Shown: piece after piece, positions 560-31,520 of the stretch
How positions within the stretch are numbered: position 1 is the stretch's first letter
Layout: each line of letters starts with the position of its first letter
Virus record (IMG/VR): IMGVR_UViG_3300042448_001346
Span: 1 to 31,520 of that record
DNA length: 31,520 nt
Direction: 5' to 3' (one strand)
DNA from: a virus
Taxonomy: Duplodnaviria; Caudoviricetes
Notes under the pieces: generated by a model
What the model saw: the letters and a program-made list of their open reading frames with translations, nothing else
The model's database searches: none
Told to the model about the DNA's origin: nothing
Position numbers and translations under genes: made by a program

Positions 560-1501
560 GTGTTGAATAGTACTGACAAATCCAAAGTTATTACAACGCT
601 TTCTAATGCGTTGGGTAGTTACTCCAATCTAAAGGGTAATGAACTTGCATTCCACTGTCCATTTTGTAATCACCATAAACAAAAACTCCAAGTCAATACC
701 GAAACTCAAAAGTGGCATTGTTGGACTTGTAATAGTGGTGGTAAGAAATTGACCTCATTATTAAAGAGGTTGGATGTGGATAGGAAAACAATCTCAATCA
801 TTAGAGAAATATACGGAGATTCTAATTATAATCCCCAAAATGAGGATGCGGATACAAAAGTATACATTTCCTTACCAAAAGAATTTAAATCGCTTAATGA
901 AGTTCCTAAAGGGTTTAATCCCGAATACAAACATGCTATGTTCTATCTTACACAAAGAGGAATTGGTATGAAGGAAATTATCAAATATAATATTGGATAT
1001 TGTACGGAAGGTTTGTATGCAAAACGAGTTATTATACCATCGTATTTATCGGATGGGCAATTAAACTACTTTGTTTCTCGTTCTTATTATCCAGAAGAGA
1101 AGATGAAATATAAAAATCCTCCAATCAGTAAAAATGTAATTTGTTTAGAATCGCAGATAAATTGGAACGAACCAATTATATTATGTGAGGGAGTATTTGA
1201 TGCAATTACAATTAGAAGAAACGCAATTCCACTATTAGGTAAGTTTCCATCCAAAACATTGGTTGAAAAAATCTTTATGAGTGGAGTTAGTGATATTATT
1301 ATCTCATTAGATAATGATGCAATAAATGAAGCATTAAAAGCAGCAGAATATTTTAGAAAACAGGGAATAAATGTAAAAATGATGCATATGAAAGATAAAG
1401 ATGCATCTGAAATTGGATATAATAAATTTTATGAAGAACTAAAGAAAACTAAAGAGTTTTCATCCAATGAATTATTATTAAATAAGATTATGAGTTTATG
1501 A
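560..1501 (+). CDS. DNA primase (T4 gp61-like; Zn finger + TOPRIM)
   Basis: N-terminal CPFCNHH...WHCWTC zinc-binding domain; KYKNP; TOPRIM motifs CEGVFDA and LDND. Start is GTG 560 or TTG 563. Confidence 0.9.
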   Translation: MLNSTDKSKVITTLSNALGSYSNLKGNELAFHCPFCNHHKQKLQVNTETQKWHCWTCNSGGKKLTSLLKRLDVDRKTISIIREIYGDSNYNPQNEDADTKVYISLPKEFKSLNEVPKGFNPEYKHAMFYLTQRGIGMKEIIKYNIGYCTEGLYAKRVIIPSYLSDGQLNYFVSRSYYPEEKMKYKNPPISKNVICLESQINWNEPIILCEGVFDAITIRRNAIPLLGKFPSKTLVEKIFMSGVSDIIISLDNDAINEALKAAEYFRKQGINVKMMHMKDKDASEIGYNKFYEELKKTKEFSSNELLLNKIMSL

Positions 1502-4500
1502 GTAGATTAAAAAAGATTTACCACATTGCCGATGTACACATCCGTAATGTAAAAAGACACAATGAGTATAGACAAGTGTTTGAAAAAATGTTTGAAGAAA
1601 TCCGTAAAAGAGGTACGGAAGATTCAATTATTTATTTAGCAGGGGATATTGCCCATGCTAAATTAGAATTATCTCCTGAATTAGTTAGAGAGATTAGTTG
1701 GTTATTTACCGAATGTTCTAAATTATGTGAAACAATCCTTATTACAGGTAATCACGATTGTAATATGAACAATTCGGATAGATTGGATGTTCTTACTCCA
1801 ATTGTAGAGGCGTTAAATCTGCCAAACTTTACATATCTAAGAGATACACAAGTTTATGGAATCGGTGATGTTGATTTCGCAGTATTCAGTATTTTTGATA
1901 ACAAAGATAATTGGCCTAAAGCAGAAACTTTATCTGGCAATAAAAAGATTGCCTTATTTCACGGACCAGTTGATAATTCTCAAACGGATATTGGATATGT
2001 AGTATCTTCTCGTCATTTTACAACGGATATGTTTGATGGATACGATTTAGCCTTATTGGGTGATATCCACAAACGACAGGAGATGATTTCTCCAAAAGGA
2101 TGTAAGGTAGTTTATGCCGGTTCATTAGTTCAACAAAACTTTGGTGAAACTTTGGATAAGCATGGATTCCTTGTTTGGGATTTGGATACAATGAGTTACG
2201 AAGCGGTTGATATTCATAACGAGTATGGGTATTATACTATGGATATTGATAATGGTAAAGTTCCTATCGTATCAGATATGCCAAACAAACCTCGTTTAAG
2301 AGTTCGTTTATCTAATACTGATTCTGCTGATACTAAAAGAGTAATGGCTGAAATTAAAATGAGATATGGTGTTGAGGATTTCACAGTTATCAGAACCGAT
2401 TCTCTTTCTAAATCAAAAACAGGTAATAGATTAAACAAATTAGACTTTGAAGATATTTCGGATATTAATTATCAGAACTCACTTATAAATGAGTACATTG
2501 AGAGAATGATGCCGTTTGTAGCTAAAGAAGATATCGAAAAATTAGAAGGAATTAATAGAGATATAAATAGTAGAATTGTAAATGAAGATGTACAAAGAAA
2601 TATTCAATGGAAACCGATTCGTTTTGAGTTTTCAAATATGTTTAGTTATGGAGAGAATAACAAAATTGATTTCACAAAGTTAGGTGGGTTAATGGGATTA
2701 TTTGCACCAAATGCAACAGGTAAATCTTCTCTATTTGATGCTATATCATTTTGTTTATATGATAAGAGTAGTAGAGCTTATAAAGCTCAAAATATTCTAA
2801 ACAATCGTAAATCGGATTTCGTTTGTCACTTACACTTTCAAATCGATGGGTTAGATTATCATATTGAAAGAACTGCAAAAACAATTAACAAAGGTAAAAA
2901 TGTTAAAGTTGATGTACAATTTTGGAGACAAGATGGTGATGATAGGACTTCTTTGAATGGAACGGAGAGAAGGGATACAAATCAGATTATCGAACAATAT
3001 GTTGGTAAGTATGAAGATTTTGTATTAACTGCTTTATCTTTGCAAGGTAATAACGCACTTTTCATAGACAAATCCCAATCAGAAAGAAAAGATTTGTTAG
3101 CACAATTTATGGGATTGAATGTATTCGATAAATTATATGAAACGGCTACTGAAGATATTAAGGAAGTATCTGTCCTAATTAAGAACTTTAAGAAAACTGA
3201 TTTCACAACTGAATTAGCTGATAAGGCAACTGAATTAAAAGATAAGAAGGGTGAATTAAAAGAATTTGAAAAAGAATTAGGTAGATTAAATACTGATTCT
3301 ACTGATTTAAATAATAGAATTGTTGGATTGAGTGCAGAACTTACTCCAATGGATGGTAATTTAGATTTGGATAGTTTAACTAAACAAGAAGGAACTATTG
3401 GTAGGGATATATTACATATTCTTGCAGAAAAGAAAGCCAAATTAGAATTGATTGAATCTCAAACTAATATTTTAAATGAATTATCACAATCAATAGAAGA
3501 TACAAAATTATTTAATCAAACTATTGATATAGAAGCGGCATATTCAAATTATCAACGAGAACAAAAAGCATTAACCGAAGCAACTAAAACTTATGATATT
3601 GCAAAGTTGCATGTAAGTTCTGCAGAAGAAACGATTTCACATTTAGATAATCATAAATACGACCCAAATTGTAAGTTTTGTTGTGACAATACTTTTGTAA
3701 AAGATGCAATGAGAGTAAAAGAATTATTACCTCAATTGAAAGAAATACTTAGAGAAGCATTGGTTGATTGTACCGGTATTCAACAAACATTGGATACGAT
3801 GGAAGGTGTGGAAGAACAATACAATGTGTTTAATGATTTGAAAGTTAAATATAGTAAAGCAATTGTTATTAAAGAAAAATCTGAAGCGGAGTTAGAAGGA
3901 ATGAGTAGTAAAGAACAATTGCTAGAACATCAATTAGAATCGGTTAAAGTTAATATTCAAAAATATCACGATAACGAAGCAACTATTAAGAAGAATGCAC
4001 AAATTAATGAAGTGATATTGGGTCTAAAACGAACCAAAGGTGAGATTGATGATGAAATCAAAAAAGTTACAAAGGATATAGCAAGTGTGAATGGCTCTAT
4101 TTCTTCCATATCTTCGTTTATAGAGGGGATAAAAGGTAAGATGAATGATGTTAAGGAGTTGGAAGAAAAGAACCGCCTATACACCTATTATTTAGATGCA
4201 GTCAAAAGAGATGGTATACCTTATGAGTTGATTTCAAAAGCATTGCCAGTAATTGAGAATGAAGTAAATAATATTCTTTCACAAGTAGTTGATTTTGGAG
4301 TAGTAATGGATGTCGATGGTAAATCAATCAATGCCAAAATTGTTTATGATGACCAAGAATGGCCATTGGAGATGTGTAGTGGTATGGAGAAATTCGTAAG
4401 TGGATTGGCTATTAGAGTGGCACTTATCAATGTATGTAATTTACCTCGTCCAAACTTCTTAGTAATTGATGAAGGATTTGGTACATTGGATAGTGATAAC

Positions 4501-4647
4501 TTATCATCCCTATTTATGATGATGCAGTATCTTAAAACTCAATTCGATTTTATTTGGGTTATTTCTCACTTAGAACAAATGAGAGATATCGTAGATGGAT
4601 TGATAGAAATAAAAAAAGAAAATGGATTTAGTAAGATTGACTTCTAA
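1498..4647 (+). CDS. Fused SbcD/Mre11 nuclease - SbcC/Rad50 ATPase (gp47-gp46-like recombination nuclease)
   Basis: Phosphoesterase motifs ADVH, AGD, GNHD, FHG and GDIH, then Walker A-like APNATGKSS, coiled coil with zinc hook CKFC (nt 3670-3681), signature CSGMEK, Walker B VIDEGFGTLD and ISH. ATGA overlap with the primase stop. Confidence 0.92.
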   Translation: MSRLKKIYHIADVHIRNVKRHNEYRQVFEKMFEEIRKRGTEDSIIYLAGDIAHAKLELSPELVREISWLFTECSKLCETILITGNHDCNMNNSDRLDVLTPIVEALNLPNFTYLRDTQVYGIGDVDFAVFSIFDNKDNWPKAETLSGNKKIALFHGPVDNSQTDIGYVVSSRHFTTDMFDGYDLALLGDIHKRQEMISPKGCKVVYAGSLVQQNFGETLDKHGFLVWDLDTMSYEAVDIHNEYGYYTMDIDNGKVPIVSDMPNKPRLRVRLSNTDSADTKRVMAEIKMRYGVEDFTVIRTDSLSKSKTGNRLNKLDFEDISDINYQNSLINEYIERMMPFVAKEDIEKLEGINRDINSRIVNEDVQRNIQWKPIRFEFSNMFSYGENNKIDFTKLGGLMGLFAPNATGKSSLFDAISFCLYDKSSRAYKAQNILNNRKSDFVCHLHFQIDGLDYHIERTAKTINKGKNVKVDVQFWRQDGDDRTSLNGTERRDTNQIIEQYVGKYEDFVLTALSLQGNNALFIDKSQSERKDLLAQFMGLNVFDKLYETATEDIKEVSVLIKNFKKTDFTTELADKATELKDKKGELKEFEKELGRLNTDSTDLNNRIVGLSAELTPMDGNLDLDSLTKQEGTIGRDILHILAEKKAKLELIESQTNILNELSQSIEDTKLFNQTIDIEAAYSNYQREQKALTEATKTYDIAKLHVSSAEETISHLDNHKYDPNCKFCCDNTFVKDAMRVKELLPQLKEILREALVDCTGIQQTLDTMEGVEEQYNVFNDLKVKYSKAIVIKEKSEAELEGMSSKEQLLEHQLESVKVNIQKYHDNEATIKKNAQINEVILGLKRTKGEIDDEIKKVTKDIASVNGSISSISSFIEGIKGKMNDVKELEEKNRLYTYYLDAVKRDGIPYELISKALPVIENEVNNILSQVVDFGVVMDVDGKSINAKIVYDDQEWPLEMCSGMEKFVSGLAIRVALINVCNLPRPNFLVIDEGFGTLDSDNLSSLFMMMQYLKTQFDFIWVISHLEQMRDIVDGLIEIKKENGFSKIDF

Positions 4648-10900: not shown

Positions 10901-11023
10901 AAAATTATGGGAGAATATTTAACTATAAACTACAACGAATTAATTCCCGTAATGGTTAAGCAAATTCAAAATTTGAAAAAAGAATTAGAAGATGTAAAAA
11001 AGGTTTTAGCTAATGGCAAGTAA
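4919..11023 (+). CDS. Large tail fibre/spike protein with C-terminal peptidase S74 intramolecular chaperone
   Basis: 2034 aa, S/T/G/N-rich beta repeats, short collagen-like GxxGxxG runs, C-terminal SDRRLKKDI...YGFIAQDVQKIYP...INYNELIPVMVKQIQNL plus coiled coil starting at nt 10730. Confidence 0.85.
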   Translation: MALLKKTLFDEKLETYNVLVEDTAPFSNYFKITELSDVFTGGKNAFLIQGSPELVADSLIKIQIKDSQGNTIYNEPGEGIPEYYEGTSKVVAVYIYPDTSFGPCTITILGELKEYYSNNGVLNPVPGNWEGTYNVRWQKQINVNPLLQNTSKIRFYRRPKVAIEETILPIYNRSVNRKTISGSVDGVSINPLAGANFKTFKGDTLYELRISGSSFSSSMEGETITITNLNQSYSTTIKDVITSNKANATIPYYETSSVTSPQIIKNFSSASFSLAYNESVTLTNSSVSSSFAKIKLTDLEAFSGDVNRLRIYASRKADIGNYTLLEDIQLESNELLQTDEYSGSVNIRTGVFSSQNIVNEFWVYKDYDSSTNYTATLNNTDLVSSVKLLDDGIQNTSDYPQRIFYYSSSLDLLKNTEYQLDFTPILSSSLYGNNIIEIYGSGSAFVNLGSNIGLGKNIGKLVTNSQFIRYDKQQVNFKTDADGTGTIVFAVYQGNWQLSNISLRATQETNFSPNEITLNVAVPTKVKNDTFDFKFEFYDINNNYVPVSLNQEFTFTGGNDLVVRKSITVTPDGNLFSFSGSGESIGVSSINFDIVKVGLTGSTIFYSSAFDENGDYIQPSVYGSQPFYPGLLTNITSGSATLTVSNFTGSLTTPKVTRILYTASCEDVQDLVNIYRVDQGANGQDGIDGSDGATFIVIANKNQFVYDPDNHFEPAQSNDFIDIKLSSNIVSGSLTIASGSFLPKLQKLSTTQVGFYTESVYRIYSGDDDEDVAMLGTNAASWSYYTPTNLIHGGTYLFTQNGFSSSVQIEGVLKGDKSKNLNAVSNANQFFYKMTDVSLSPSGQAITIDVKRNNLGSTSNAITVTSGSGKPALTVGSNNGTTGVQSYNVNGADYPYSAGATTYTFFAEDLNFDGYTDTITITPVIAESQIAVNLTNENTTFPAYSGGSVFGGFLASSGSISVKVGSEDISYASTIGNNKFSASISSSLNVTPVLTNNNYSITALSADSGSINLKVTYRDGRGSDSVFTKLVTYSKAKAGTPNVLVAVSPSAQTISANSKGSGSATPIALTVTALEAGTSRFTSIGTPTFTNGLAGSVSSNVITITSDASTITSNTAQVTIPVNYTDSEGATGTKNVVATVSKALASAPSTIVFIEKDGQTITKSKTGTYGTPSSFRINVLEGANSSSYDNTSPFANSTFRISGVTNGSVSATDLDKYATITPTTPSSTSGLVVSITGSFVDSEGSTTSFFKTHNVNVASDGTDGSTGATGPGIVLRGEWKNNTLYYYTTVAGSSRRDAVYKSVSGVTHYWATLVQHTSETGVKELPAVSNDNTYWQYLGEQDFFVAAKIAIFDESYVKNTLNVGTNSDGSAANITLKGGTTSPYVSIGQGTQGYGNNGIWLGIVSATTPKVSFVSGSNYFKYDASATNMVDIGGRISATSLTADTGSIGGFEIQGGLLQAGSTTSGIQLNGTTSTIIVGNLSTNSSARVSPAGFFAGNTSFGSAPFSVNLDGALVATNADVRGKITATQGTIGGWVISQNSISKNRVTLNAGESDAENYIQITGTPGGSFAGNRVYIHPGELTDISGGSGNAIAATNASSYVNISSANTIYAGNSSTTATMGTSSQTVTSLSTSSTFNLIAKLKFKIDVVYESVPVTQVLNETNTRSYYSIDYAAGQMAWSTLVDDGAVNLTTARPEWGWIPQSDNTAVFNFLNQMNAAMGTNITSIQQMENEITGWTITTALSYMNGSIGVNSAMTYKTTSGGTTVSTFTPNSQITSEELPEVTYTVNSTGNGTTGPSFAITKSNTLQSVYRRVTWRGGRYNINFTGYGGSSTNYQGYAIWAETEGGFVSTPSSVTYSAKTTSLTANALTKQVELSEAGMQAVFNATNSSEGNYFRVSDVGTPTISNFNIKSAGFFAHYGEMHVKGDIAGFSTALSSDRRLKKDIVDIEDTEIEDMDKLHPVTYSWKDDENNNKHYGFIAQDVQKIYPHLTKTKIMGEYLTINYNELIPVMVKQIQNLKKELEDVKKVLANGK

Positions 11024-14000
11024 TATTAAATTAGGTGATTTAGGAACTTCAGCTGGATTAAATACGGCAACAACAACTGTAAGTGGTTCTTATGTTGCTA
11101 CTATATTTTTAACGGGTTCTATTGGGGGTGGTGTAAGAGATTTACCAGATACTCCAGGAACATTATCAGGTACATCCGCTAGACCTTATGGACAACAATA
11201 TGAATTTATAGAATTTGATGGAAAAATTCCAACGGTTACAATTATATCAATTGCTAGTCCGGATACATCTGACTCTAATAGTGGTAAAAAAATTACTTGG
11301 GAATATTCAATCGCAGGTATGCTTGCTGGGGAAACTGCAAGATTAAAAATATTTGTAAATGGTTCAGATACAGGTGAATATTATAATATAAATGGAAATG
11401 TTGGACTTGCTAATGGAGTGTATGTTGATACTGCTAATTCGTATGTAGTTCCAAACTCCATTAATACTTTAAAATTAGTATTAAATATAAATTCATCAAA
11501 TAAGACGGGAAATGATAGTAAGACTGTATATGTTTATCCATTAGATTTAACAATAACATCTATAACGCAAACACCATCCCTAAGTGGAACTACTACATAT
11601 AATTACACAACGGGTTCAATTTCATTTAATGCAAATGTAGCAGGTGGTATTTCACCATACATTTATAATTGGAATAGTGGAGCAAGTTCTGCTAATCCAT
11701 ATTCATTTAATAACGCATCAACTGTAACCGATAAACAAATAACATTAGTTGTAACGGATTCTCATACTCCAACTGCGGATACCGCTAATGGAACGAGTTT
11801 ACCTATAATGAGGAGACCTGTATCGGTAAGTATTTCTAATGCATCGATTAGTGAACCATATGTAGATTATACATTAGATTCTACTGTAAATTATAATGTT
11901 CAAGGATTAAATATTTCATATGACTGGGTTGTAGGAAGCGGTACTGGTTATAAATTTGGATACGCATCTAATGATGCAGACCCAATTGTATATTATTCAA
12001 CATTAGGTGCAAAAACTCATAGAGTTAGTATAAGTTCATTTGAAAACGCATCAATTAGAAATCATATTACATCTAATACTACTGTGCAAGTTTCACCAAC
12101 CGCAAATGTAAGTGTAACATATGCGCCTGGAACTGAAACTTGGTCTGCCACATTTGATAGTGTAGTAGCAGCTTCCTATGGTTCAAGAACTTATGAATAT
12201 CAAGCCCGTTCAAAAGATGCAGGTGGAACATATACGGATTGGGGTGGTAGTGTAACTGTTTCATCTAATTCAATTTCTGCTCAATCATTTGCAGGAAAAA
12301 CAAATACTGCACAATATGTTCAAATTAGAGTAAGAGTTAGAAGAACATATACTCCGGACAGTTTTAATGAAGTTTCTACTTGGGTAGAATCAAACGAAGC
12401 ATTAGTTCCGCAAAAGGGTATTGTTAATATGGATAATCAAACTAATCTATTAACAGGTGGAGATAGAAGTTTTGATGGTAGTGTTACAATTGGCGGAGTA
12501 GCTGATACGGGATATAATACTCCAACAATAACGGCAGTTACTACGGGTGGTACTGTTACTGCTACCATTAGTAAACCTTCTTCTAATGTTGTTAGAGTGG
12601 TTGTTAATAATCCATGTACAAATGTAAATGATGGAACGGCTAGCCATGTTATATCTTTAAAAGATGGTAATGGTTATAATCTAACTAAATCTTTTACAAC
12701 TCAATATAAAATAAGTTCTACATCTATAAATTTAACTACTACTTGGGTAAATGGTAATTATTATAATGGAGCGAGTAATTCTATTGCAAATAGCTTAGCA
12801 CAATACTCATTTACATTAAATTCATTTGCTTATAAAGTTGGAGCTGGTTCATACACCACATTAAATAGTGGTAATATGAGTAGTTCGTATTCACATACTT
12901 ATACTGCACCCACTTCAGACCAGACTTGGACTTATAGAATTGTTGCTAGTGGGGGAACATATACGACATCGGATACAGCAGAAACTTCTTTGACCGTATA
13001 TGGATATCCTGGACAATCTTATGGTTATTCGGTTGCAGGTGTTCCATCATCTGGTACATTATCTCAAGTGGGTAGTGTTGTAGCAAGAGTAAGTAGAAGT
13101 AGTGGTAATTTCGCAAAAATATCAGTAGATAGTTATTATGTAACTAGACCTACGGGAACAAATGTATCACCTGCTGGTAAATCGGAAGCAAGTATCACCG
13201 ATTCAGCAACTAGCTTTGATTCAGCTACATTTTCATTATACGATTCGGCAGAATGTGGTAATAATGTAACGGGTATAGCAACTTTAATGGCTTATTTAAA
13301 ATATGAAATCGATGCATCGAGATATTATTTACATCAACTAATATCTTCAGGTGTATCTGTTTTAAATGAACCACCAAGCCTAACCTCTACATTAATTAGT
13401 GGTATTACAAGTGATTATGCAATTAGAGGAAATATTATAACACACGAGATTTCATATTCTTCATATGGTCCTCCAATAGCAGGTTATTACGATTTTAATG
13501 GTACATTTTATGATAATTCTGCGTACGCATATCTTTCTCAAAATACAAATCCATCGAGTTTTTCAGGTATAACAGTCAATGATGAAAATTCACCAGATTC
13601 ACCTTCAATTGGATATTACCGAATAGCTACCGATGGGACATTTTGTAGAAAGACTAGAAATTTATCATTTGAATACACACCAACTTCAGGCCAGGTAGGT
13701 ACTAATATAACATTGAATTATTATGCAAGAGAATACCAAATAGATGAAAATCAAATTTATGAAGGGCCTGGCTTATTTACTTATTTATATGATTATTATT
13801 TTGATGGAAGTGAAGCAACTTTAACTTCTACAAAAACATATAGCGTTAGAGGAAGAAGATTAGGTACTAGCGGTAATTCTTGGAGTATTGTAATTTATGT
13901 AAGCAAAGGATATAGTGATTTACAATTTGGATTGGGTAGTGGTACATTAACAGGACCTGATGGAGCTATTGATTATTATAATGGAAATTTAGATGCTTTA

Positions 14001-15899
14001 ACATATGTTTATCAAAGATATAATGGAAGTAGTTGGGTAGATATCGCTGGTTCATCTTACGATCCAGGTACATTCGGAACTACTTTAGTTAGAGTTAAAT
14101 TTACAGATACATGGGGTAATACATTTGCATCAGGCGAACAAAGTGCAACTACTTCGGATTTAGATTATACATTTAATGTAACTAATGAAGGCGGCCAGCC
14201 TACTGTATATGCTTATGTTGGTCCTGGTCAATCTAGTGCACCTGTTATATTAACTCCAGGATTTACCGATAAAAGAGCCATATGGTCAACTGGAACAAAT
14301 ATCAGTATTGATAATATGACTGTAGATGATTATGTTATAGTATATGAACATAATGTATCCGGTATGGATGAGAAGGGAACATATTCTAATTTTCCAGGTG
14401 CATATACTACCATAAGTGTATCTGTTACAGCAGGTAGTACTCCTACATATGGAATGTTTAGAACATTTACTTATACACTTAGTACTAATCAACAAGTAAT
14501 AGCAACTAGAGATTATGCCGGAAGTCCTTATGCAAACGCAACTGGCACAGATATATTAGGTATTAAATCATTTCAAATGTTTAATTCCGGTGATAACATA
14601 GGAAATGCTACTTTATTTGGCACAGGTGGTATTAGTGGTAACTTTAGATTGATGGCATTATTAAGAGCACCATCGGTATATGATGCAACTGCTACATATA
14701 CATTGCATGGACAAAAAGCTTCAAACAATACACAACAAGGTACAGACTATTATGTAGTGTTAAAGACAAGAGGTGTTCAAAATATTGTTAATATATTAAC
14801 TCAAACGGGTCAATGTGGTGGAATATATGTAGAATATAGAACGGGTCAAATAGATACCGCAACAAGATTGATTATTCAAGAAAGTACGGATAATTCTACA
14901 TTTACAAATACTTCATACAATTATAATGGTATATCAGCAAATACTACATACAATGCATTTATAACCGTAACAGGAAATTCAACAAAATATTATAGAGTAA
15001 TATTACAAAATAGTGCTGGTACTACTTTGGTTACTGGTACATCATATCCGTACACAAATTACGCAGCAGGTGCAGCCGGTACTTATGTTTTTTTAAATGT
15101 AGAGTCTGGTTGCTTCTCATTTACATATAGAGTTAATAGACCTTCTGGAGGTAATTCTAATAGTAACTCTTATTATGCTATTTCTTGGGCAGCTACAGAT
15201 GGATATGGTAATGTTACCACTTCAATTACATCCGATTCCGGCCGTGCATATGGTACTACTTACTCTCTTAGTTTATTTGGGTTTCCATGTGATGTACAAA
15301 TATATGTTACTATAACACCTTATTCGGCAACAGGTTGTGAGGGTACATCGGCTGGTACACTTGAAGTTGTGCATAAATCTGATTCGTATAGTAGTTTATG
15401 TGCTTGTTCTGGTGGAGATGGTTGTTTAGTATATGGTACAAAAGTTTTAATGTATGATGGCTCTTTAAAAAATGTTGAAGATTTAGTTATAGGAGATATT
15501 GTTAAGAGTATGTCGATTAATGGGTTAAATGCTGGACAGGAATTTGCTTGGCAAAACTTTTCTACAAATAATTTTGAATATGAAGAAGGTTTATCTATCA
15601 TATATGATATTAATGATAATTCATTCAATCAATATTATGTATTTAATAATAGATTAAGAGCAACATATGAACATCCTATATTTATAAAGAGAGGTGATAT
15701 TTGTATGTTTGAACCTGCTGAAAATGTAACAATTGGAGATTATATGTTTACATCTGATAATGAATTTGAAATAATTACATCAATTGATATAATAGATGAG
15801 AGTGTACAAACTATTAATATAAACATAGAAGAAAATGATGTATATTTTGCAGATGGTATATTAGTTCATAATTTTGCTCAACCAAAAGACCAAGCTTAA
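11013..15899 (+). CDS. Large virion structural/adhesin-like protein with C-terminal Hint (intein-like) domain
   Basis: 1628 aa, S/T/Y/G-rich beta-sandwich-like body; Hint motifs G|CLVYGTKV (Cys at 15423), ATYEHP and YFADGILVHN (Asn at 15870-15872). Confidence 0.8.
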   Translation: MASNIKLGDLGTSAGLNTATTTVSGSYVATIFLTGSIGGGVRDLPDTPGTLSGTSARPYGQQYEFIEFDGKIPTVTIISIASPDTSDSNSGKKITWEYSIAGMLAGETARLKIFVNGSDTGEYYNINGNVGLANGVYVDTANSYVVPNSINTLKLVLNINSSNKTGNDSKTVYVYPLDLTITSITQTPSLSGTTTYNYTTGSISFNANVAGGISPYIYNWNSGASSANPYSFNNASTVTDKQITLVVTDSHTPTADTANGTSLPIMRRPVSVSISNASISEPYVDYTLDSTVNYNVQGLNISYDWVVGSGTGYKFGYASNDADPIVYYSTLGAKTHRVSISSFENASIRNHITSNTTVQVSPTANVSVTYAPGTETWSATFDSVVAASYGSRTYEYQARSKDAGGTYTDWGGSVTVSSNSISAQSFAGKTNTAQYVQIRVRVRRTYTPDSFNEVSTWVESNEALVPQKGIVNMDNQTNLLTGGDRSFDGSVTIGGVADTGYNTPTITAVTTGGTVTATISKPSSNVVRVVVNNPCTNVNDGTASHVISLKDGNGYNLTKSFTTQYKISSTSINLTTTWVNGNYYNGASNSIANSLAQYSFTLNSFAYKVGAGSYTTLNSGNMSSSYSHTYTAPTSDQTWTYRIVASGGTYTTSDTAETSLTVYGYPGQSYGYSVAGVPSSGTLSQVGSVVARVSRSSGNFAKISVDSYYVTRPTGTNVSPAGKSEASITDSATSFDSATFSLYDSAECGNNVTGIATLMAYLKYEIDASRYYLHQLISSGVSVLNEPPSLTSTLISGITSDYAIRGNIITHEISYSSYGPPIAGYYDFNGTFYDNSAYAYLSQNTNPSSFSGITVNDENSPDSPSIGYYRIATDGTFCRKTRNLSFEYTPTSGQVGTNITLNYYAREYQIDENQIYEGPGLFTYLYDYYFDGSEATLTSTKTYSVRGRRLGTSGNSWSIVIYVSKGYSDLQFGLGSGTLTGPDGAIDYYNGNLDALTYVYQRYNGSSWVDIAGSSYDPGTFGTTLVRVKFTDTWGNTFASGEQSATTSDLDYTFNVTNEGGQPTVYAYVGPGQSSAPVILTPGFTDKRAIWSTGTNISIDNMTVDDYVIVYEHNVSGMDEKGTYSNFPGAYTTISVSVTAGSTPTYGMFRTFTYTLSTNQQVIATRDYAGSPYANATGTDILGIKSFQMFNSGDNIGNATLFGTGGISGNFRLMALLRAPSVYDATATYTLHGQKASNNTQQGTDYYVVLKTRGVQNIVNILTQTGQCGGIYVEYRTGQIDTATRLIIQESTDNSTFTNTSYNYNGISANTTYNAFITVTGNSTKYYRVILQNSAGTTLVTGTSYPYTNYAAGAAGTYVFLNVESGCFSFTYRVNRPSGGNSNSNSYYAISWAATDGYGNVTTSITSDSGRAYGTTYSLSLFGFPCDVQIYVTITPYSATGCEGTSAGTLEVVHKSDSYSSLCACSGGDGCLVYGTKVLMYDGSLKNVEDLVIGDIVKSMSINGLNAGQEFAWQNFSTNNFEYEEGLSIIYDINDNSFNQYYVFNNRLRATYEHPIFIKRGDICMFEPAENVTIGDYMFTSDNEFEIITSIDIIDESVQTININIEENDVYFADGILVHNFAQPKDQA

Positions 15900-17856: not shown

Positions 17857-20800
17857 ATGAATATAAAAGAAATAGATAAACCTGAAATTAAAAAAGTAGT
17901 AGTAGTTTACGCTGGTAGATTTCAACCCTTCCATAAAGGACATTATGCTACTTATCAGAAATTAGTTTCTAAGTTTGGTGCAAATAATGTTTACATAGGA
18001 ACTTCTAATGATACTTCAGGACCAAAATCTCCTTTTAATTTTAATGAAAAGAAAACTATAATGACTAAAATGTTTGGTATATCTCCAAATAAAATAGTTC
18101 AAGTAAAAAACCCATATGCACCAAAAGAAATTTTAAGTGGTATGGATGGAAAGACTACTGCCTATGTTGCAGCAGTTGGACAAAAAGATGCAGATAGATT
18201 AGCAGGTAAATATTTTAAACCATATAATGGTAAGACTGGATATGGTTATGATGAAATTGGTTATGTTTATGCAGTTCCTGCGGAAGATAACGCTATAAGT
18301 GGAACTGATGTTCGTAATTGGTTAAGTAAAGGCGATGATAAAGATAAACAAAAAGGATTTACGAAAGCATATCCAAAATTTGACAAAGATATATTCAATA
18401 TGATAACAGGTAAATTAAATGAAGAACTATACAAAGGCTACCCTTCAGAAGAACAAGTAAAAGATATCGAAAGAAAAAATAAAGAATTTAGAAATTCACC
18501 TGAATCAACTTCAGATGATGAATATCTTTATGACCCAATTGCAGAATTAATTGGTAGAGCTGCAATGGAAGAAATGTTTGAAGAATTTACTAGAACATAT
18601 TTTAACGAAGAATCTGAAGCAGAGAAAATGGGATTAACCCATTTAGGTGGTGGGTATTATGGTAAAGAGGGGCAACCGGCTACCCACAAATCAGATAATG
18701 GTAAAATTCGTACATTAACTCCAAAAGAAATTGATGCAGTTAAGAAAAAAGCAATGTCTAAAGGGCCTTCCGATGCACCTGTTAACGAACCTAAGCCATC
18801 TCAACCAGGTCAGCCTGTTAATAAAGGAGCAACTGCACAGGGTAAAGTAGATAAGAAAAAAGAAGAACCAACTGCAGATAAAAAAGGTGGAGCAGATACT
18901 GGAAAACAAGCACCTCCTCCTGAGCAAAAATTAAGTGGAGCAGAATTAAAATCTTCTGCCGAAATGACTGATGGGGATAAGAAAAAAGCAGAAGTAAAAG
19001 AGAAATTACACCAAGCTATGGCTGATTTATCAGATGATGAGAAAAAAGCAGCTGAAGATACTAACAACCCTGAATCTGAAACTAGAAAAGGTTGGTATGA
19101 AAAATTAAATGATTGGACTGGAGATAAATTACATAAGGTTGGTAAAGCAGTTGGGCATGTTATTGCACATAAAGTAGACCAATATAAAGAATTTGGTAAA
19201 GGAATGTACTCAATAGCAACTTCAGGTAAATTGGGTACTATTAAAGACGAAAAAACTGGTAAAAAAGTAAATTGGTCTGATTATACTCAAGAAGGTGATA
19301 AGGGGTTTTTTGGAAATATGAAGCCTAAAATGCAAGAAGTTCCTGTTTATAAAAAAGATAGCCATGGACACGATGTACATGACGAAGAAGGTAATCCCGT
19401 TCAAGCTAAAGATTGGAGAGGTAGACCTAAAACTACAAAAGAACCTGTATTCAGAGAAGATTTATCTCCAAGAGAAAAAGCATTAGCAAAGAAATCTTGG
19501 TACGAAAGAAGTGAGCAATTAAAAGGAATAAAAGGAACAGCAATGGATGCCGCTGTTATGTGTGCTAGTATGGCAGTGGCTGGAGCTGGAGTAGGAGCTT
19601 TAGCAGCTAAAGGAATCGGTACAACTGCAAATGTAACCGCATATGCAGGTCAAACCATTGGACAAGCAGCAACACACGGTGCGGCTAGTGCATTTACACA
19701 TGGAGCATTAGGATTTAGTACACATTTAGGTAAAGATATGGTTAAGCATGTTGCGTTTGAATCTGTTGGAGCTGGCGCATTACAAGCAGGTGGTGGTGGT
19801 GCTGTATTGAGCGTTGTAACGGGTGGTATTTTGGAAGCCATAGATGATAAATCAAATCAACCAAATCCACAAGATATGATGATGAACCTAATAAAGAAAA
19901 TAGGTGAGAGAATGGGAACATATAAGATGACCGATGAACAAATGTTGGCATCTATTGAATCATATAAAAAAAACAAACCTGAATCTGATTTAAAAAATGC
20001 AGCAATGGATTTGATGAAAGAGGATATTTCAGAATCAAAACAACAATCAATTCAGAATTTTGTAGAGTTTGCAACTAAAAGATTAAAATTAAAAGAAACA
20101 CCAAATATTACATTAGTTGGTGGTAGAGAGTTTGCAGAAGTAAAAACATCATTGGGTGGATATAATCCAGATGATAAATCAATATATGTAGCAACCGAAG
20201 GTAGATTAACTGCTGATATTTTAAGAACACTTGCACATGAAATGGCTCATAGAAAGCAAGATGAGATGGGATTGGTTACAAATGCAGAAACCGATGGAGC
20301 AGATGGTTCTCCAATAGAAAACAAAGCACATGCAGTAGCTGGAATCTTAATGAGAGAATATGGTAGAATCAACAAACAAATTTATAATGAAGATATCAAT
20401 GTAGATGTTGATAAGGGTGATACTGTTTTAATGGGTAAGTTTAAAAACAAAAAAACTACCGTTAAAGATATTGGAACTGATGACTATGGGATGCCAACAA
20501 TCAACGGAAAGAAAGCAACTACATTCAGAATTCCAAGAGGTGAAGAGAAATCTAATCCACAATCAGTATTCAATGAAGTAGGTCCAAACGATTGGCATTT
20601 TAAAGCAATTATGAAGATGTGGGATACCGCTGGTTCATTTGGTAGAAAGAAAATTGGAGTGGTAGTATGTAACGACCCAAAGGCTGATAGAAACGATGTA
20701 GCTAGAAAGTTAAGAAACTACGGATATAAAGAAGTTACCCATGTTACTGATAAGTTGGGATTAGACGAAAAAAAAAATCTAAATGAATTAACACAAGGTT

Positions 20801-22221
20801 TATTCGCAGGTAAGGTTAAGATAGGCGGACAGCCGGTTGAAATTGAAGTAGAATTATTAGGAGTAGATAATAAAACAAAAGAATTTATAACAAAAGTAAT
20901 TCATATTGATAAAAAATATCAAAGTAAATTACCAATAGGCTCTACATTCAAAATTCCCGCAAGAATATTCAGAATGCCAGGCGGTGGTTGGCACAAAATC
21001 AAATCATCTGCATTTAAAGAATCCCTAAACGAAGGTGGAGCATATGGACATATGTCACATCCATTTGATGATATGGATTTAACTTTTGGTGATTTAAAAA
21101 AGATTATCAAAGGAGCATTAACTGGTAATTTAGAATTGACAAGAGAAAAAACCGATGGACAAGCATTGGCAATTAGTTGGAAGAATGGTAGATTAATTGC
21201 AGCTAGAAATAAATCACATTTACAAAATGCCGGAGCAGGGGCAATGGGAATTGAAGATGTAGCATCAAAGTTTGGTGGTAGAGGTGGATTAACCGATGCA
21301 TATAACTTCGCTATGAAAGATTTATCCGTAGCAATTCAATCACTTTCGGAAGCACAACGAAAAAAGATATTTGATGAAGGAAAATGTTTTATGAATTTGG
21401 AAGTAATATGGCCAACTTCGGTAAATGTAATTCCTTATGGACAGGCTTTATTAGTATTCCATAATACAACTTGTTACGATGAAAAGGGTTCTGCGATTAG
21501 TGCAAATCAGGGAGCAGCAACTATGTTAGCAGGAATGATTAAGCAAGTGAACGCTGATGTTCAATCAAAGTATACAATACAAGGTCCACCTGTAACAGAA
21601 CTACCTAAAAAAGAGGAGTTAAGTTCAAAACAAACAAAGTACCTTACTCAATTACAAAAGATACAATTTCAGTTCCAATTATCCGATAAAGATGGTGTAT
21701 CTGAATATCATCAAGCATGGTGGGAAGATTTTGTAAATAAATCAAAAGTTAAATTACAAAAATTAGAAAAGGAAGCATTAGTAAGAAGATGGGCATTTGG
21801 TGATAAATCATTCCGTTTAAATACTATTGCTGATAAAGATGCTCAAAGTTGGGCAATTGAAAATGATAAAGTAAATGTAGCTAAACAACAAAAAGATAAT
21901 GTTAGACAATTTGAAGAAATATTTTTGGGTGTTGGGGCAGATGTTCTTTCATTTATGGGTTCAGTATTAACTGTAAATCCAGATGCAGCTGTTCGTAGTA
22001 TGAAAGATAGATTAAAATCAACTGCTGAAAAAGTTAGAGGTAGTGGTGATATATCTAAAATAGCTAAATTAAAAATGGAATTAAGTAGATTAGCTAGTAT
22101 TGGTGGTAAAGATAAAATAGTACCAAACGAAGGTATTGTATTTGTTTATAAAGGTAATACATATAAACTAACAGGTACATTTGCACCACTAAATCAGATA
22201 TTAGGTATATTTTACGAATAA
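17857..22221 (+). CDS. Multidomain protein: HxGH nucleotidyltransferase + Gly-zipper region + HExxH metallopeptidase + small modules + ligase-like nucleotidyltransferase (DUF6267-like); putative head-packaged polyprotein
   Basis: GRFQPFHKGH and ISGTDVR (cytidylyltransferase/NMNAT-like); TLAHEMAHRKQ...E; EKTDG, NLEVI, EGIVF and YKLTG (ligase motifs I, III, IV, V); modules separated by LNE/FNE/YNE/ILE/ISE. Confidence 0.8.
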   Translation: MNIKEIDKPEIKKVVVVYAGRFQPFHKGHYATYQKLVSKFGANNVYIGTSNDTSGPKSPFNFNEKKTIMTKMFGISPNKIVQVKNPYAPKEILSGMDGKTTAYVAAVGQKDADRLAGKYFKPYNGKTGYGYDEIGYVYAVPAEDNAISGTDVRNWLSKGDDKDKQKGFTKAYPKFDKDIFNMITGKLNEELYKGYPSEEQVKDIERKNKEFRNSPESTSDDEYLYDPIAELIGRAAMEEMFEEFTRTYFNEESEAEKMGLTHLGGGYYGKEGQPATHKSDNGKIRTLTPKEIDAVKKKAMSKGPSDAPVNEPKPSQPGQPVNKGATAQGKVDKKKEEPTADKKGGADTGKQAPPPEQKLSGAELKSSAEMTDGDKKKAEVKEKLHQAMADLSDDEKKAAEDTNNPESETRKGWYEKLNDWTGDKLHKVGKAVGHVIAHKVDQYKEFGKGMYSIATSGKLGTIKDEKTGKKVNWSDYTQEGDKGFFGNMKPKMQEVPVYKKDSHGHDVHDEEGNPVQAKDWRGRPKTTKEPVFREDLSPREKALAKKSWYERSEQLKGIKGTAMDAAVMCASMAVAGAGVGALAAKGIGTTANVTAYAGQTIGQAATHGAASAFTHGALGFSTHLGKDMVKHVAFESVGAGALQAGGGGAVLSVVTGGILEAIDDKSNQPNPQDMMMNLIKKIGERMGTYKMTDEQMLASIESYKKNKPESDLKNAAMDLMKEDISESKQQSIQNFVEFATKRLKLKETPNITLVGGREFAEVKTSLGGYNPDDKSIYVATEGRLTADILRTLAHEMAHRKQDEMGLVTNAETDGADGSPIENKAHAVAGILMREYGRINKQIYNEDINVDVDKGDTVLMGKFKNKKTTVKDIGTDDYGMPTINGKKATTFRIPRGEEKSNPQSVFNEVGPNDWHFKAIMKMWDTAGSFGRKKIGVVVCNDPKADRNDVARKLRNYGYKEVTHVTDKLGLDEKKNLNELTQGLFAGKVKIGGQPVEIEVELLGVDNKTKEFITKVIHIDKKYQSKLPIGSTFKIPARIFRMPGGGWHKIKSSAFKESLNEGGAYGHMSHPFDDMDLTFGDLKKIIKGALTGNLELTREKTDGQALAISWKNGRLIAARNKSHLQNAGAGAMGIEDVASKFGGRGGLTDAYNFAMKDLSVAIQSLSEAQRKKIFDEGKCFMNLEVIWPTSVNVIPYGQALLVFHNTTCYDEKGSAISANQGAATMLAGMIKQVNADVQSKYTIQGPPVTELPKKEELSSKQTKYLTQLQKIQFQFQLSDKDGVSEYHQAWWEDFVNKSKVKLQKLEKEALVRRWAFGDKSFRLNTIADKDAQSWAIENDKVNVAKQQKDNVRQFEEIFLGVGADVLSFMGSVLTVNPDAAVRSMKDRLKSTAEKVRGSGDISKIAKLKMELSRLASIGGKDKIVPNEGIVFVYKGNTYKLTGTFAPLNQILGIFYE

Positions 22222-22224
22222 AAT

Positions 22225-22244
22225 TATATATATATACATATATA
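22225..22244. repeat. Short (TA)n tract in an intergenic region, possibly a variant promoter box
   Basis: TATATATATATACATATATA between the 1454-aa gene and the 222-aa gene. Confidence 0.4.
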
Positions 22245-22268
22245 AAAGGTTATTAACAATATAGAATT

Positions 22269-22937
22269 ATGACAAAAAGAAAAAGTTTTGATGAGAAATC
22301 AAAGGGGATGCACAAATCTCGTAAATTAATTATAGATACGGTATTTGGTAGAACTGATAACAATCAAAGAGTTCATGGTTACGAAGGAGAAGTAGAACAA
22401 AAGAGAGAAGTCGGTGAAGTGTGGACTGATAAAGATGGTAAAGAGTGGGAGCAAAAAGAAGGATTTAAAATCAACCGTTCTAAAATGGATGATGTTAGAG
22501 AATATCTTTCTAAATTAAACACTTGTTCAGCTGAAAATTGCGAAACTATACAATATGGTAACGCAGATAAAAAATTAATTCGTAAAACAGGATTATGTAC
22601 ATCTTGTTTAGCTAAATTAGAAAGTGAGTTAAGAATAGATGGAACATTTCCATTTTATGAAGATTATAAAATAAGTAGAAATCAACTAGCATATGTTAGA
22701 GATTTAAAAATGAGATTTGAAGATGCTTTAGCAGGAGTTACTAAACAATTTGAATTTGTTAATGAAGATGGTAGCATGAGTAATTGGCAATGGGATATTG
22801 ATTTAGAGAAAGTTAAAGAAGATTTACAAAAAGATATTGATGGAGCTGCCGATGCAATAGAAGCACTATTGGAAAGGAAAGAAGCATTAGAAAATAAGTT
22901 ACGAGAATTAAATCACACAGAATTAATAAAAAACTAA
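22269..22937 (+). CDS. Hypothetical protein with putative Cys4 zinc-binding motif and C-terminal coiled coil
   Basis: 222 aa; CSAENC...LCTSC; heptad-like C-terminus. Confidence 0.7.
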   Translation: MTKRKSFDEKSKGMHKSRKLIIDTVFGRTDNNQRVHGYEGEVEQKREVGEVWTDKDGKEWEQKEGFKINRSKMDDVREYLSKLNTCSAENCETIQYGNADKKLIRKTGLCTSCLAKLESELRIDGTFPFYEDYKISRNQLAYVRDLKMRFEDALAGVTKQFEFVNEDGSMSNWQWDIDLEKVKEDLQKDIDGAADAIEALLERKEALENKLRELNHTELIKN

Positions 22938-25231: not shown

Positions 25232-26272
25232 ATGAACGAAGATTTAGATAAATGGTTTAAAGAAAAGTGGGTAAACATCGGCAAAAAAGTTGATGGTAAA
25301 CATCCACCATGTGGAACTTCGGGAGAAAAGAAAGGTTATGCTAAATGTGTTCCTGCGGCAAAAGCAGCTGGGATGAGTAAAAAAGAAAAAGAAAGTGCAA
25401 CTCGTAGAAAGAGAGATGCACAAAATGATGCAGGAAGAGGTGGTAAAGATAGTAGTGGACAAGGTAAAAAGCCAATATATGTTTCTACTAAACCAAAAAA
25501 TGAAGAATGGAGTGATAAATATAAAAGTAGTATAGATTGCAATAATCCAAAAGGTTTCTCTCAAAAAGCACATTGTGCAGGAAAGAAAAAAAATGAAGAT
25601 ATGAATATAGAAGAAAAACTAAATTTATTTTTAGAAAAGAATTGTCCAACTGACCCGGCAAAGTGGTCGGCATCTAAATCCGCAGCAAAATCTAAATTTG
25701 ATGTTTATCCATCTGCATATGCAAATGGATGGGCTGCAAAGAACTATAAATCAAAAGGTGGTGGTTGGAAAACTTGCAATGAGGGAGAAGCTAACGCATT
25801 ATGTGAAGATTGTTGGGATGGATATAAGCAAGTAGGAATGAAGGATAAAGGTGGAAAGCAAGTTCCAAATTGTGTTCCTATAAGTGAAGATATTGATTCA
25901 GATGATGATGTAAACTATGGTTTAGTTGAACCTGAAGAATATGATGTGGAAGATGAGGATATGGAAGATTTCATTTCTTTTATGAGAGCATATTCTAAAG
26001 ATTTAAGTGAAGCAAATTGTAATTGTGTTTATGAAGCAGAATATCAGGGTAGAAATGTTCAATTGGGTAAACCAATGGCAGGTGATGTTAAGAAATTCAA
26101 AGTTTATGTTAAAAATCCTGCCGGTAATGTTGTTAAAGTAAACTTTGGTCAAAAGGGAGTTAAAATTAAAAAGAATAATCCCGATAGAAGAAGAAGTTTC
26201 AGAGCAAGACACAATTGTGACCAACCAGGACCAAGACATAAAGCAAGATATTGGTCTTGCAGAAAGTGGTAA
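25232..26272 (+). CDS. Multi-module basic protein (DUF5872-like N-terminal and DUF6321-like C-terminal modules); putative head-packaged polyprotein
   Basis: Small phage modules LDKWFKEKWV..CG..KCVP, WSDKYKSSIDCNNPKGFSQKAHC, KFDVYPSAYANGW..YK..GGGW, CWDGYKQVGMK..VPNCVP and KFKVYVKNP..VNFG..SFRARHNC..YWSCRKW, separated by xxE motifs. Confidence 0.7.
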   Translation: MNEDLDKWFKEKWVNIGKKVDGKHPPCGTSGEKKGYAKCVPAAKAAGMSKKEKESATRRKRDAQNDAGRGGKDSSGQGKKPIYVSTKPKNEEWSDKYKSSIDCNNPKGFSQKAHCAGKKKNEDMNIEEKLNLFLEKNCPTDPAKWSASKSAAKSKFDVYPSAYANGWAAKNYKSKGGGWKTCNEGEANALCEDCWDGYKQVGMKDKGGKQVPNCVPISEDIDSDDDVNYGLVEPEEYDVEDEDMEDFISFMRAYSKDLSEANCNCVYEAEYQGRNVQLGKPMAGDVKKFKVYVKNPAGNVVKVNFGQKGVKIKKNNPDRRRSFRARHNCDQPGPRHKARYWSCRKW

Positions 26273-29745: not shown

Positions 29746-30057
29746 ATGAAAATATCTCAATTAAAAGAACTTGTTAGGCAAGTAGTGAAAGAAGAAAACG
29801 ATTACCAACAATTATTTAAGCATATGCTTGATAAATGTGGTAAATCAATTACTGATATGTCTGATGATGAGAAGAAGAAATTCTTCAATGCCGTAGATAC
29901 TGCTTATAAAGCAAAATCTGAAGGTAAATTGAGAGGATATAATGAAAACTTACCTGGAAATCAGGAAAAGTTAGATACTGATAAGGATGGTGAGATTGAA
30001 GGTTCGGATTTAGCAGCATTAAGAGCTAAAAACGAATCGGTTAAAAAAAAAAGGTAA
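29746..30057 (+). CDS. Small head-region protein with EF-hand-like loop; ends at an A10 slippery run
   Basis: Leader MKISQLKELVRQVVKE; DTDKDGEIEGSD at 29974-30009; A10 at 30043-30052 just before TAA. Confidence 0.7.
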   Translation: MKISQLKELVRQVVKEENDYQQLFKHMLDKCGKSITDMSDDEKKKFFNAVDTAYKAKSEGKLRGYNENLPGNQEKLDTDKDGEIEGSDLAALRAKNESVKKKR

Positions 30058-30470
30058 ATGAAAATCTTGCGGTTGATATAATAGCCACTGTTGGTACTAT
30101 ATTAATTGCTAAGATTATTTTTTACTATATGATAGATTTGGCACAAAAAGGAATGAAATATTTCCAAGGTAACCAAAACTACAAAAAAGAGGTTAAACAA
30201 ATTTTAGATTCTATATCAAACGATAAGAAGACAATATCAGATATAGCTAAAATGGTTGACCCTAAAAAGGGAATTGATAATACAACTGTTGATAAAATTA
30301 TAAATTTACCATATGTAAAAACTCAAATAATAAAAATGAGTGATAAAACAAATGGTGAATTAAGTGAAACGGAATTAGAAAATCAATTAAAGACTATTAT
30401 ATTAAAGTCTTGGAATGATTCATCAATAACGGATAACGCTGTTGAAAAAGTTAAAAAGGATTTAAAATAA
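30045..30470 (+). CDS. Hypothetical protein; frame open upstream of the listed ATG (30129) back to the A10 run, probably the -1 extension of the preceding ORF
   Basis: Frame reads KKKVNE-NLAVDIIATVGTILIAKIIFYY-MIDLAQ... with no stop from 30045; includes a TM-like hydrophobic helix. Confidence 0.6.
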   Translation, partial: KKKVNENLAVDIIATVGTILIAKIIFYYMIDLAQKGMKYFQGNQNYKKEVKQILDSISNDKKTISDIAKMVDPKKGIDNTTVDKIINLPYVKTQIIKMSDKTNGELSETELENQLKTIILKSWNDSSITDNAVEKVKKDLK

Positions 30471-31065: not shown

Positions 31066-31320
31066 ATGGCAAAGTTAATAAACTTAATACCAAAGAAAAA
31101 TATAGTAGTTAAAGAATCTATTGATGATATGGATGCAACACTTCCAACTCAAGTTGAAAGATTTTTAGATAAAGCTGTTAACGCTATAAAGGGATATAAT
31201 TTATCTAGAAAAAAAGAGCAATTGGTAATTGCAAAAATAATTGATGCATTAGGATTGGATAAACAACAATTGATGCAAGCAATTCAAAAGATTAAGAAAA
31301 ACGATATTTTAAAAAAATAG
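31066..31320 (+). CDS. Small hypothetical head-region protein
   Basis: 84 aa with leader MAKLINLIPKKNIVVKE. Confidence 0.65.
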   Translation: MAKLINLIPKKNIVVKESIDDMDATLPTQVERFLDKAVNAIKGYNLSRKKEQLVIAKIIDALGLDKQQLMQAIQKIKKNDILKK

Positions 31321-31323
31321 TAT

Positions 31324-31520
31324 ATGATACGCTTAAAAGACCTATTAAAGGAAGAAGAAGAACTTCAGCAGTTAACAACTGAATTGAAAAAACATTTCTT
31401 AGAAATAATTTCAACATACGGTCAACATAGAGAAGGTATGACTAGAAAATCTGATATCAGACAAGTTGCAGAAACTTTAGGTGGTATCGCAGATGCTGCA
31501 CAAGAATATACTTTAAGAGA
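31324..31520 (+). CDS. Hypothetical head-region protein (partial; not in the ORF track)
   Basis: ATG at 31324, reads MIRLKDLLKEEEELQQLTTELKKHFLEIISTYGQ... and is open to the window end. Confidence 0.7.
   Translation, partial: MIRLKDLLKEEEELQQLTTELKKHFLEIISTYGQHREGMTRKSDIRQVAETLGGIADAAQEYTLR

Follow-up and report, generated by a model that had tools for sequence, protein, structure and literature searches.

An in-frame run of ten adenines as a candidate slippage site in a probable head polyprotein of a lake phage

Introduction

Why should a phage gene carry ten consecutive adenines, in frame, in the middle of a long coding sequence? The question is raised by positions 20768-20777 of the window, by which we mean the whole analysed stretch of DNA, 31,520 nt in length. 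The original prediction was that this run and a second one downstream are copies of a single reusable cassette, a rheostat that works by slippage or phase variation and is coupled to protease cleavage sites. Slippage on A9-11 is already known from bacterial genes.

The window and its two A10 runs

The window is part of the genome of a tailed phage whose head module is T4-like and includes a terminase, a gp20-like portal and a gp21-like prohead protease. The nearest cultured portals were those of Microcystis phage Mel-JY01 (52%) and Flavobacterium phage immuto (46.5%), with RM378 more distant, and these similarities suggest that the phage belongs to the Far-T4 neighbourhood (PMC4360716, main text). 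Most sequence words of the window were found in 20 sequencing runs of lake or freshwater DNA; there was no RNA run among the 23 runs listed with window words, which has no bearing on expression. Three related records were searched for RNA polymerase beta and for Sigma70_r2, and none of the three gave a match to either. As no phage RNA polymerase beta was matched, the host enzyme is presumed to transcribe these genes. Elsewhere in the window, a single ORF of 1049 aa (1498-4647) fuses SbcD-like and SbcC-like nuclease subunits, and a protein of 1628 aa (11013-15899) with a weak C-terminal HINT match (PF07591, E 0.008) adjoins a tail-fibre gene with an S74 chaperone domain. In two related loci (L031 and L042), a motif resembling TATTTATA recurs in intergenic positions upstream of late genes and may be a late promoter.

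The window contains 67 runs of A6, 9 of A7, 2 of A8, none of A9 and 2 of A10, and no run of T longer than 8. As had been predicted, its two longest A-runs are followed by TC and GG spacers and then by TAAATGAA: at site 1 the A10 at 20768-20777 precedes TC and TAAATGAA (20780-20787), and at site 2 the A10 at 30043-30052 precedes GG and TAAATGAA. These are the only runs of at least A9 in the window. An A8 at 25586 had been taken for a shorter copy; it reads AAG AAA AAA AAT, and because the AAG codon interrupts a potentially longer run, we do not count it as one. Two cultured relatives had no run longer than A8 in the regions read. The features that bear on site 1 are as follows.

17857-22221, plus strand: ORF of a 1454-aa modular protein with a cytidylyltransferase-like N-terminus, an HExxH metallopeptidase-like module, small modules and a ligase-like C-terminus
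20578-20763, plus strand: module U, about residues 908-969, from comparison of relatives; the run comes after it
20761-20769, plus strand: L-D-E971, an L/I-x-E motif (as given in PMC9026906) directly 5' of the run
20768-20777, plus strand: in-frame A10, predicted slip site (GAA AAA AAA AAT, E971-K-K-N), from the sequence and its conserved codons
20779-20787, plus strand: L-N-E977, an L/I-x-E motif 3' of the run, whose codons incidentally give TAA (20780-20782) and TGA (20784-20786) when read in the other frames
20788-21033, plus strand: module D, residues 978-1059, lost on slippage; many relatives have other modules there
21034-22221, plus strand: ligase-like C-terminal domain with an invariant E-K-T-D-G in the alignment, lost on slippage
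30470-31060, plus strand: T4 gp21-like prohead protease (PF03420, profile match), the presumed cutter

The modular polyprotein and the products of slippage

Homology between the polyprotein and its relatives breaks at module borders, and the order and content of the modules vary. The motif [LIVF]NE occurs seven times in the 1454-aa protein vs 1.0 expected, and none of the other window ORFs in this test, 15 in all, showed so large an excess; five of the seven lie at module borders (residues 189, 251, 907, 977 and 1059). The T4 Alt and internal-protein type is marked by L/I-x-E motifs where domains meet and by a gp21-like protease encoded in the same module. Both marks are present here, and the polyprotein is probably packed into the phage head.

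In the C-terminal domain, E38-K39-T40-D41-G42 is invariant in 42 sequences and matches Motif I (KxDG) of the ATP-dependent RNA ligase superfamily. A structural model of the domain (pLDDT 80.7) gave weak matches to tRNA-ligase chains (Z 4.8-4.9, rmsd 3.4-3.7, 83-91 residues). Foldseek hits had E values of 0.6 or worse, and no firm ligase match was obtained by PDB sequence search, Foldseek or VIA. We speak of a ligase-like domain, for which the structural support is weak. In one relative (L015, 6100-12000) an intein lies inside the EKTDG motif and is split by a separate endonuclease-like ORF.

At site 1 the ORF reads GAC GAA AAA AAA AAT CTA AAT GAA (D-E-K-K-N-L-N-E, the first E being E971). Read-through is the default, and slippage of either sign would stop the chain early, as the original prediction held with its estimate of about 975 aa. 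The product would have 976 aa with one additional A (…EKKKSK, TGA 20784), 974 aa with one A fewer (…EKKI, TAA 20780) and 975 aa with two additional A. Translation also bore out that the predicted slip product loses the last two modules, including the ligase-like C-terminus. For comparison with relatives we used 61 distinct contexts of module U, of which 8 lie in the site-2 gene, 34 in polyproteins with the linker [EQ]KK and 19 in polyproteins without it; the 34, hereafter the carriers, were picked by this peptide and not by the DNA run. An additional A leads to a stop within 7 codons in all 34 carriers, and the loss of one A to a stop within 8 codons in 23, with 3 more carriers not determinable.

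Cleavage motifs around the run

T4 gp21 cleaves after L/I-X-E, as described in PMC9026906. Such a motif stands at most 8 residues upstream of the run in 27 of the 34 carriers and on both sides of it in 24. The predicted coupling of the run to cleavage motifs thus holds in that site 1 lies at a module joint flanked by L/I-x-E, and fails in that an xNE motif is not obligatory: there is none behind the run in the L024 group or at the third-gene site described below, and in neither does any protease motif adjoin the run.

The cassette A10-NN-TAAATGAA, in which run, spacer and following octamer would form one unit, did not survive comparison. There are 10 copies of TAAATGAA in the window, 8 of them in-frame I/V/L-N-E codons, one at site 2 and one at a stop-start overlap, and relatives have TTAAAGAA, TTAACGAA, TAAGTGAA or TAGATGAG in its place. 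We rejected it as a DNA element in its own right, since it is the usual coding for L/V/I-N-E. The stops in both other frames were likewise rejected as a designed feature, the same being true of 290 of 506 [LIV]NE motifs that have no run.

Selective constraint on the run

Could the run be a relic or a tolerated by-product, either brought in from the site-2 gene together with module U or nothing more than E-K-K-N in an AT-rich genome? Neutral codon use yields A10 for EKKN with a probability of 0.6, and in the window alone one in-frame A10 was seen vs 0.81 expected from codon shuffling, so that an excess is visible only across relatives. A scan of the whole collection for the pattern was uninformative, returning 46 stretches from site-1 relatives and unrelated AT-rich viruses.

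Among 675 non-redundant ORFs used as background, the observed/expected ratio of A-runs was 1.0 for A5, 1.1 for A6, 0.9 for A7 and 0.41 for A8. Runs of at least A9 numbered 37 vs 177 expected, 22 being of the site-1 type, 8 of the site-2 type and 7 elsewhere, and there was 1 run of at least T9 vs 29 expected. When distinct contexts able to give A10 were considered, 23 of 184 did so vs 95.1 expected; 20 of these 23 were site 1 and 3 were in-frame site 2, while the other contexts gave 0 of 161. No run of 9 ever arises from the matched peptides EKKR and NKKKI, a fact that argues against a by-product.

In the 34 carriers, all 68 lysine codons are AAA, and the preceding codon is GAA in 33 and CAA in 1. 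The length of the run is A9-11 in 33 carriers, and the fourth residue is K, N, T or an AGT-coded S, also in 33. By comparison, K/E columns of the adjacent module show a mean of 3.1 changes with 1 of 7 invariant, and the ligase-like domain has only 8 invariant columns among its 39 conserved K/E/Q columns (2 of 21 for K). The chance of three invariant codons comes to roughly 0.003-0.009, a rough figure because the carriers are related and recombine, forming 9 to 27 clusters depending on the cut-off. A median of 32% of synonymous codons differ among the carriers, yet the codons of the run show no synonymous change. A bias of lysine towards AAA, which had been named as a simpler explanation, does not account for a run found with 68 of 68 AAA codons here and in none of the 161 other contexts.

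In distant relatives (L146-L157) the run follows module U in a small gene, U standing directly before site 2, and site 1 may thus derive from a unit of U plus run that moved. About half of the relatives have, moreover, lost the run: of 65 distinct polyproteins, 30 are free of runs of at least A9 in the interval from the KOW-like module to the ligase-like domain, and 1 more has a run elsewhere (the patchiness was followed on a quick tree of the polyproteins, used for this alone). The device is thus dispensable. Against a relic, the 34 carriers show no synonymous decay; the run also persists across a 46-residue insertion (L021, L022 and L134) and many swaps of the module that follows, and it recurs in unrelated genes. 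We consider a relic or by-product improbable, and the site-1 run looks to be under selection.

The second site

The gene containing site 2 lies upstream of the prohead protease gene and has these features.

30043-30057, plus strand: A10 and in-frame TAA ending a 103-aa gene (29746-30057); conserved reading resumes in the -1 frame (K-V-N-E)
30063-30116, plus strand: predicted RNA hairpin, 10 nt behind site 2 (-19.4 kcal/mol, z -4.35)
30054-30470, plus strand: -1 frame extension, giving a predicted fusion of 241 aa

The default here is a stop, as originally proposed. A run of A10-11 was present in all 26 loci that show the junction. Among 39 distinct site-2 contexts, the -1 frame is needed in 35, 3 are in frame and 1 needs the +1 frame following a deletion upstream. 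Site 2 is fixed in frame through A11, with the hairpin kept, in L150, L154 and L157; in L072 it belongs to a separate gene that has a start of its own and an A10 in frame. In L005/L037 (10800-10830) the downstream module is shifted to the +1 frame by a short deletion ahead of site 2, a change that may be an assembly error. Upstream of the run (29950-30040), the window has one copy of a repeat D-x-D-K-D-G-E-I-E, of which L148 and L150 have two; each copy ends in K-N-E, and the repeat resembles a calcium-binding loop.

The two sites of the window are not the same element, contrary to the original prediction. A 3' hairpin was found in 33 of 39 site-2 contexts vs 4 of 23 site-1 contexts (z under -2), and A_AAA_AAG in 28 of 39 vs 3 of 23. 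Site 1 of the window is a bare run with A_AAA_AAA and A_AAA_AAT, and the window holds no counterpart of the hairpin there (z -0.97).

Reuse of the run in other head genes

We searched 15 related virus records (2.43 Mb), three of them near copies and four chosen in the knowledge that they held a run. They contained 21 runs of at least A10: 3 at site 1, 10 at site 2, 3 at new joints, 1 near a gene end (six codons from it) and 4 in non-coding DNA. Thus 16 of the 17 coding runs of this length lie at joints of probable head proteins. Two complete genomes (G001 and G010) have exactly sites 1 and 2, and 3 of the 15 records have no such run. Runs of A9 are less specific, 25 being found in 5 records, several of them in frame in ordinary genes.

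A third gene, marked by a DGHHRW motif, has A9-10 at a domain joint (for example L163, G003:22372). It has no Pfam label, and we take it to be ParB-like. Eight distinct junctions include both of its domains: 4 are in frame with A9-10 (L198-L201), 3 are default-stop and 1 has no run. In the default-stop forms (L208, L235 and L236) a bare A10 with no hairpin is the only frame link to a domain of 240-264 codons in the -1 frame. Restart may replace slippage in some cases, since L235 offers an ATG after 16 codons of the -1 frame and L210 contains both domains but no run. Among the other 24 distinct homologs of this gene, in which only the upstream part matched and of which one is cut off, no run of at least A9 was found there.

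Two further A10 runs were noted in one phage (G009), on the minus strand at 172270 (L292) and 173482 (L295), in small head-module genes behind the prohead protease that are homologs of window 31324-31518 and 31066-31320. One of these sites is default-stop, with an 85-codon -1 extension starting K-I-K-E, and the other is in frame where the window homolog ends; both rest on this one phage, having been found again only in two identical contigs. From their position, or from leaders such as MIKLKSLLKEE, we infer that the additional run-bearing genes encode head cargo. The bare A10 at joints of other probable head genes thus has default-on and default-off forms. What stands of the proposed reusable slippage rheostat is the reuse of runs of at least A10 at head-gene joints in both polarities; the cassette and the identity of the two window sites do not.

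These data bear on two further readings of the run. It might be kept for a role other than frameshifting, as a translational pause or attenuator between domains or as a joint for module exchange. Its place is always a linker, with downstream modules swapped right behind it, and iterated AAA reduces output (PMC4363877). However, the same run is the only frame link in the default-stop genes, and the other linkers of the polyprotein carry no run; we regard such a role as very improbable. The other reading is DNA-level phase variation, in which replication slippage would toggle the ligase-like end in sub-populations. Two relatives (L150 and L154) are in frame at site 2 through one additional A as compared with L148, and T-runs are avoided as well as A-runs. 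Against this, site 1 is known from relatives in frame only, with 0 of 34 carriers out of frame; the polarity of the third gene changes through downstream indels while the run stays A10; and the in-frame A11 form is common to two diverged sequences and so looks fixed rather than flickering. Contigs from 4 DNA sequencing runs over 19800-22300 showed no indel at the A-run, those from three of the sequencing runs bridging it without gaps, although contigs drop rare variants. Phase variation at the DNA level, one half of what the original prediction offered, is the least probable of the readings, while the selection and reuse of the run agree with the other half, slippage.

Transcriptional or ribosomal slippage

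On this evidence site 1 is probably a functional slip site, and programmed transcriptional slippage there has somewhat better than an even chance. The homopolymer expected of transcriptional realignment, at least 8-9 A in coding sequence, is found at site 1 as A10, and the feature common to all sites is a length of at least nine A. Bacterial RNA polymerase shows no slippage below eight A (PMC6260861) and slips efficiently at nine (PMC5009743), in the accounts given there. The threshold of avoidance fits this requirement of RNA polymerase rather than a 7-nt shift site. In addition, an additional A, the direction considered at site 1, is the direction needed by the default-stop sites.

The run could also be a selected slip site at which the ribosome slips, by a -1 tandem shift on A_AAA_AAA or by sliding on poly(A), giving the same short product from a uniform mRNA. 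Site 2 resembles a textbook -1 cassette, all default-stop sites except one depend on the -1 frame, sliding of ribosomes on poly(A) has been described (PMC4363877), and transcriptional and ribosomal frameshifting are interchangeable in dnaX (PMC3711429). Because the default-stop sites mostly have A_AAA_AAG, the ribosomal route is favoured there. However, the E. coli dnaX/IS3-type features, an in-frame A_AAA_AAG and a 3' hairpin, are both absent from site 1 and scarce among its relatives. A_AAA_AAA is far less shifty in E. coli (PMC5009743), sliding on poly(A) is slight at A9-A10 in vitro (PMC4363877), and A7 is not avoided while A9+ and T9+ are. We therefore judge ribosomal slippage at site 1 unlikely.

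The following scenario for programmed transcriptional slippage may be proposed. The host RNA polymerase would add an A at site 1 in a minority of transcripts, and translation of these would terminate near residue 976, before the last two modules. The polyprotein would enter the prohead, where the gp21-like protease would cleave it at L/I-x-E. With L-D-E971 and L-N-E977 flanking the run, a slip would not alter the maturation of the upstream modules: cleavage at L-D-E971 would remove the few residues added by the slip, and the downstream modules, chiefly the ligase-like domain, would alone be made in fewer copies; the L/I-x-E motifs on both sides in most carriers are what suggests this. If tssM3 and Thermus dnaX are a guide, some 15-50% of the product might be of the short form. 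In sister genes of related phages the bare run would be used in reverse, a slip producing the long form from a default stop, and site 2 of the window, with its added hairpin, may shift at the ribosome too. More broadly, we suggest, as a proposition with slightly less than an even chance, that this lake-phage clade uses a portable ten-A slippage dial, placed in the linkers of five or more head-cargo genes and switched between default-on and default-off in evolution, to set the capsid copies of enzymes released by the protease.

Comparison with known systems

The closest parallels are bacterial. In tssM3 of Yersinia pseudotuberculosis and tssM1 of Citrobacter rodentium, poly-A frameshifting gives two length variants at 15-25%; tssM3 is default-long and tssM1 default-short, and AAG substitution abolishes the frameshifting (PMC4256274). 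As here, the poly-A run lies in a structural gene, theirs being of a phage-tail-like machine, and both polarities occur, in our case at site 2 and in the third gene. Unlike tssM, the present case is a phage gene with A10 in a linker between predicted protease sites, it recurs in several genes, and its predicted output is a ratio of released modules and not two isoforms of a membrane protein. In Thermus thermophilus dnaX, slippage on 9-10 in-frame A gives about 50% of a short product (PMC5009743, PMC3711429), and two-ORF dnaX genes with 10 A are the default-short homologs (PMC3711429). Site 1 shares the in-frame run, the shortening predicted on a slip and the absence, in these accounts, of any reported need for a hairpin; the two polarities have their parallel at site 2 and in the third gene. 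However, dnaX is a cellular replication gene with a stable short subunit, whereas the short form proposed here would be cut further.

The -1 ribosomal shift of the E. coli dnaX/IS3 type, on A_AAA_AAG with a 3' hairpin (PMC3711429, PMC5009743), fits site 2 and most of its relatives, unlike site 1, which lacks both. In the phage capsid and tail frameshifts (lambda G-T, T7/T3 capsid, A2, PSA; PMC5009743), recoding sets the ratio of two virion-related products, as we propose here. Those shifts are ribosomal and extend into a second ORF, whereas site 1 has no second ORF and would shorten the product. The head-module context, the gp21-like protease and L/I-x-E at domain borders recall T4 Alt and the internal proteins (PMC9026906), and the joining of unlike enzyme domains in one chain recalls the polyvalent phage proteins (PMC5512222). 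For neither is recoding, which we propose here, described in the text at hand of those two papers. Among the literature found, slippage elsewhere in tailed phages was only suggested, for a methyltransferase (PMC2853527). The device was not found in the openly accessible literature on slippage or frameshifting in phage head proteins, and the main text of the Far-T4 paper (PMC4360716) contains neither 'frameshift' nor 'slippage'.

If the proposal is true, virion stoichiometry would be set in a novel manner, by a conserved in-frame run at which a cargo polyprotein is shortened between protease sites. Such in-frame copies, having no second ORF, would also be a type of recoding missed by detectors that look for two ORFs, and a simple screen would be for long A-runs that are retained despite genome-wide avoidance. 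Long A-runs also occur outside coding sequence: at three loci of G009 (L287, L290 and L293), A10-11 stands a few bases 5' of start codons, where it may perhaps belong to an A-rich translation-initiation region.
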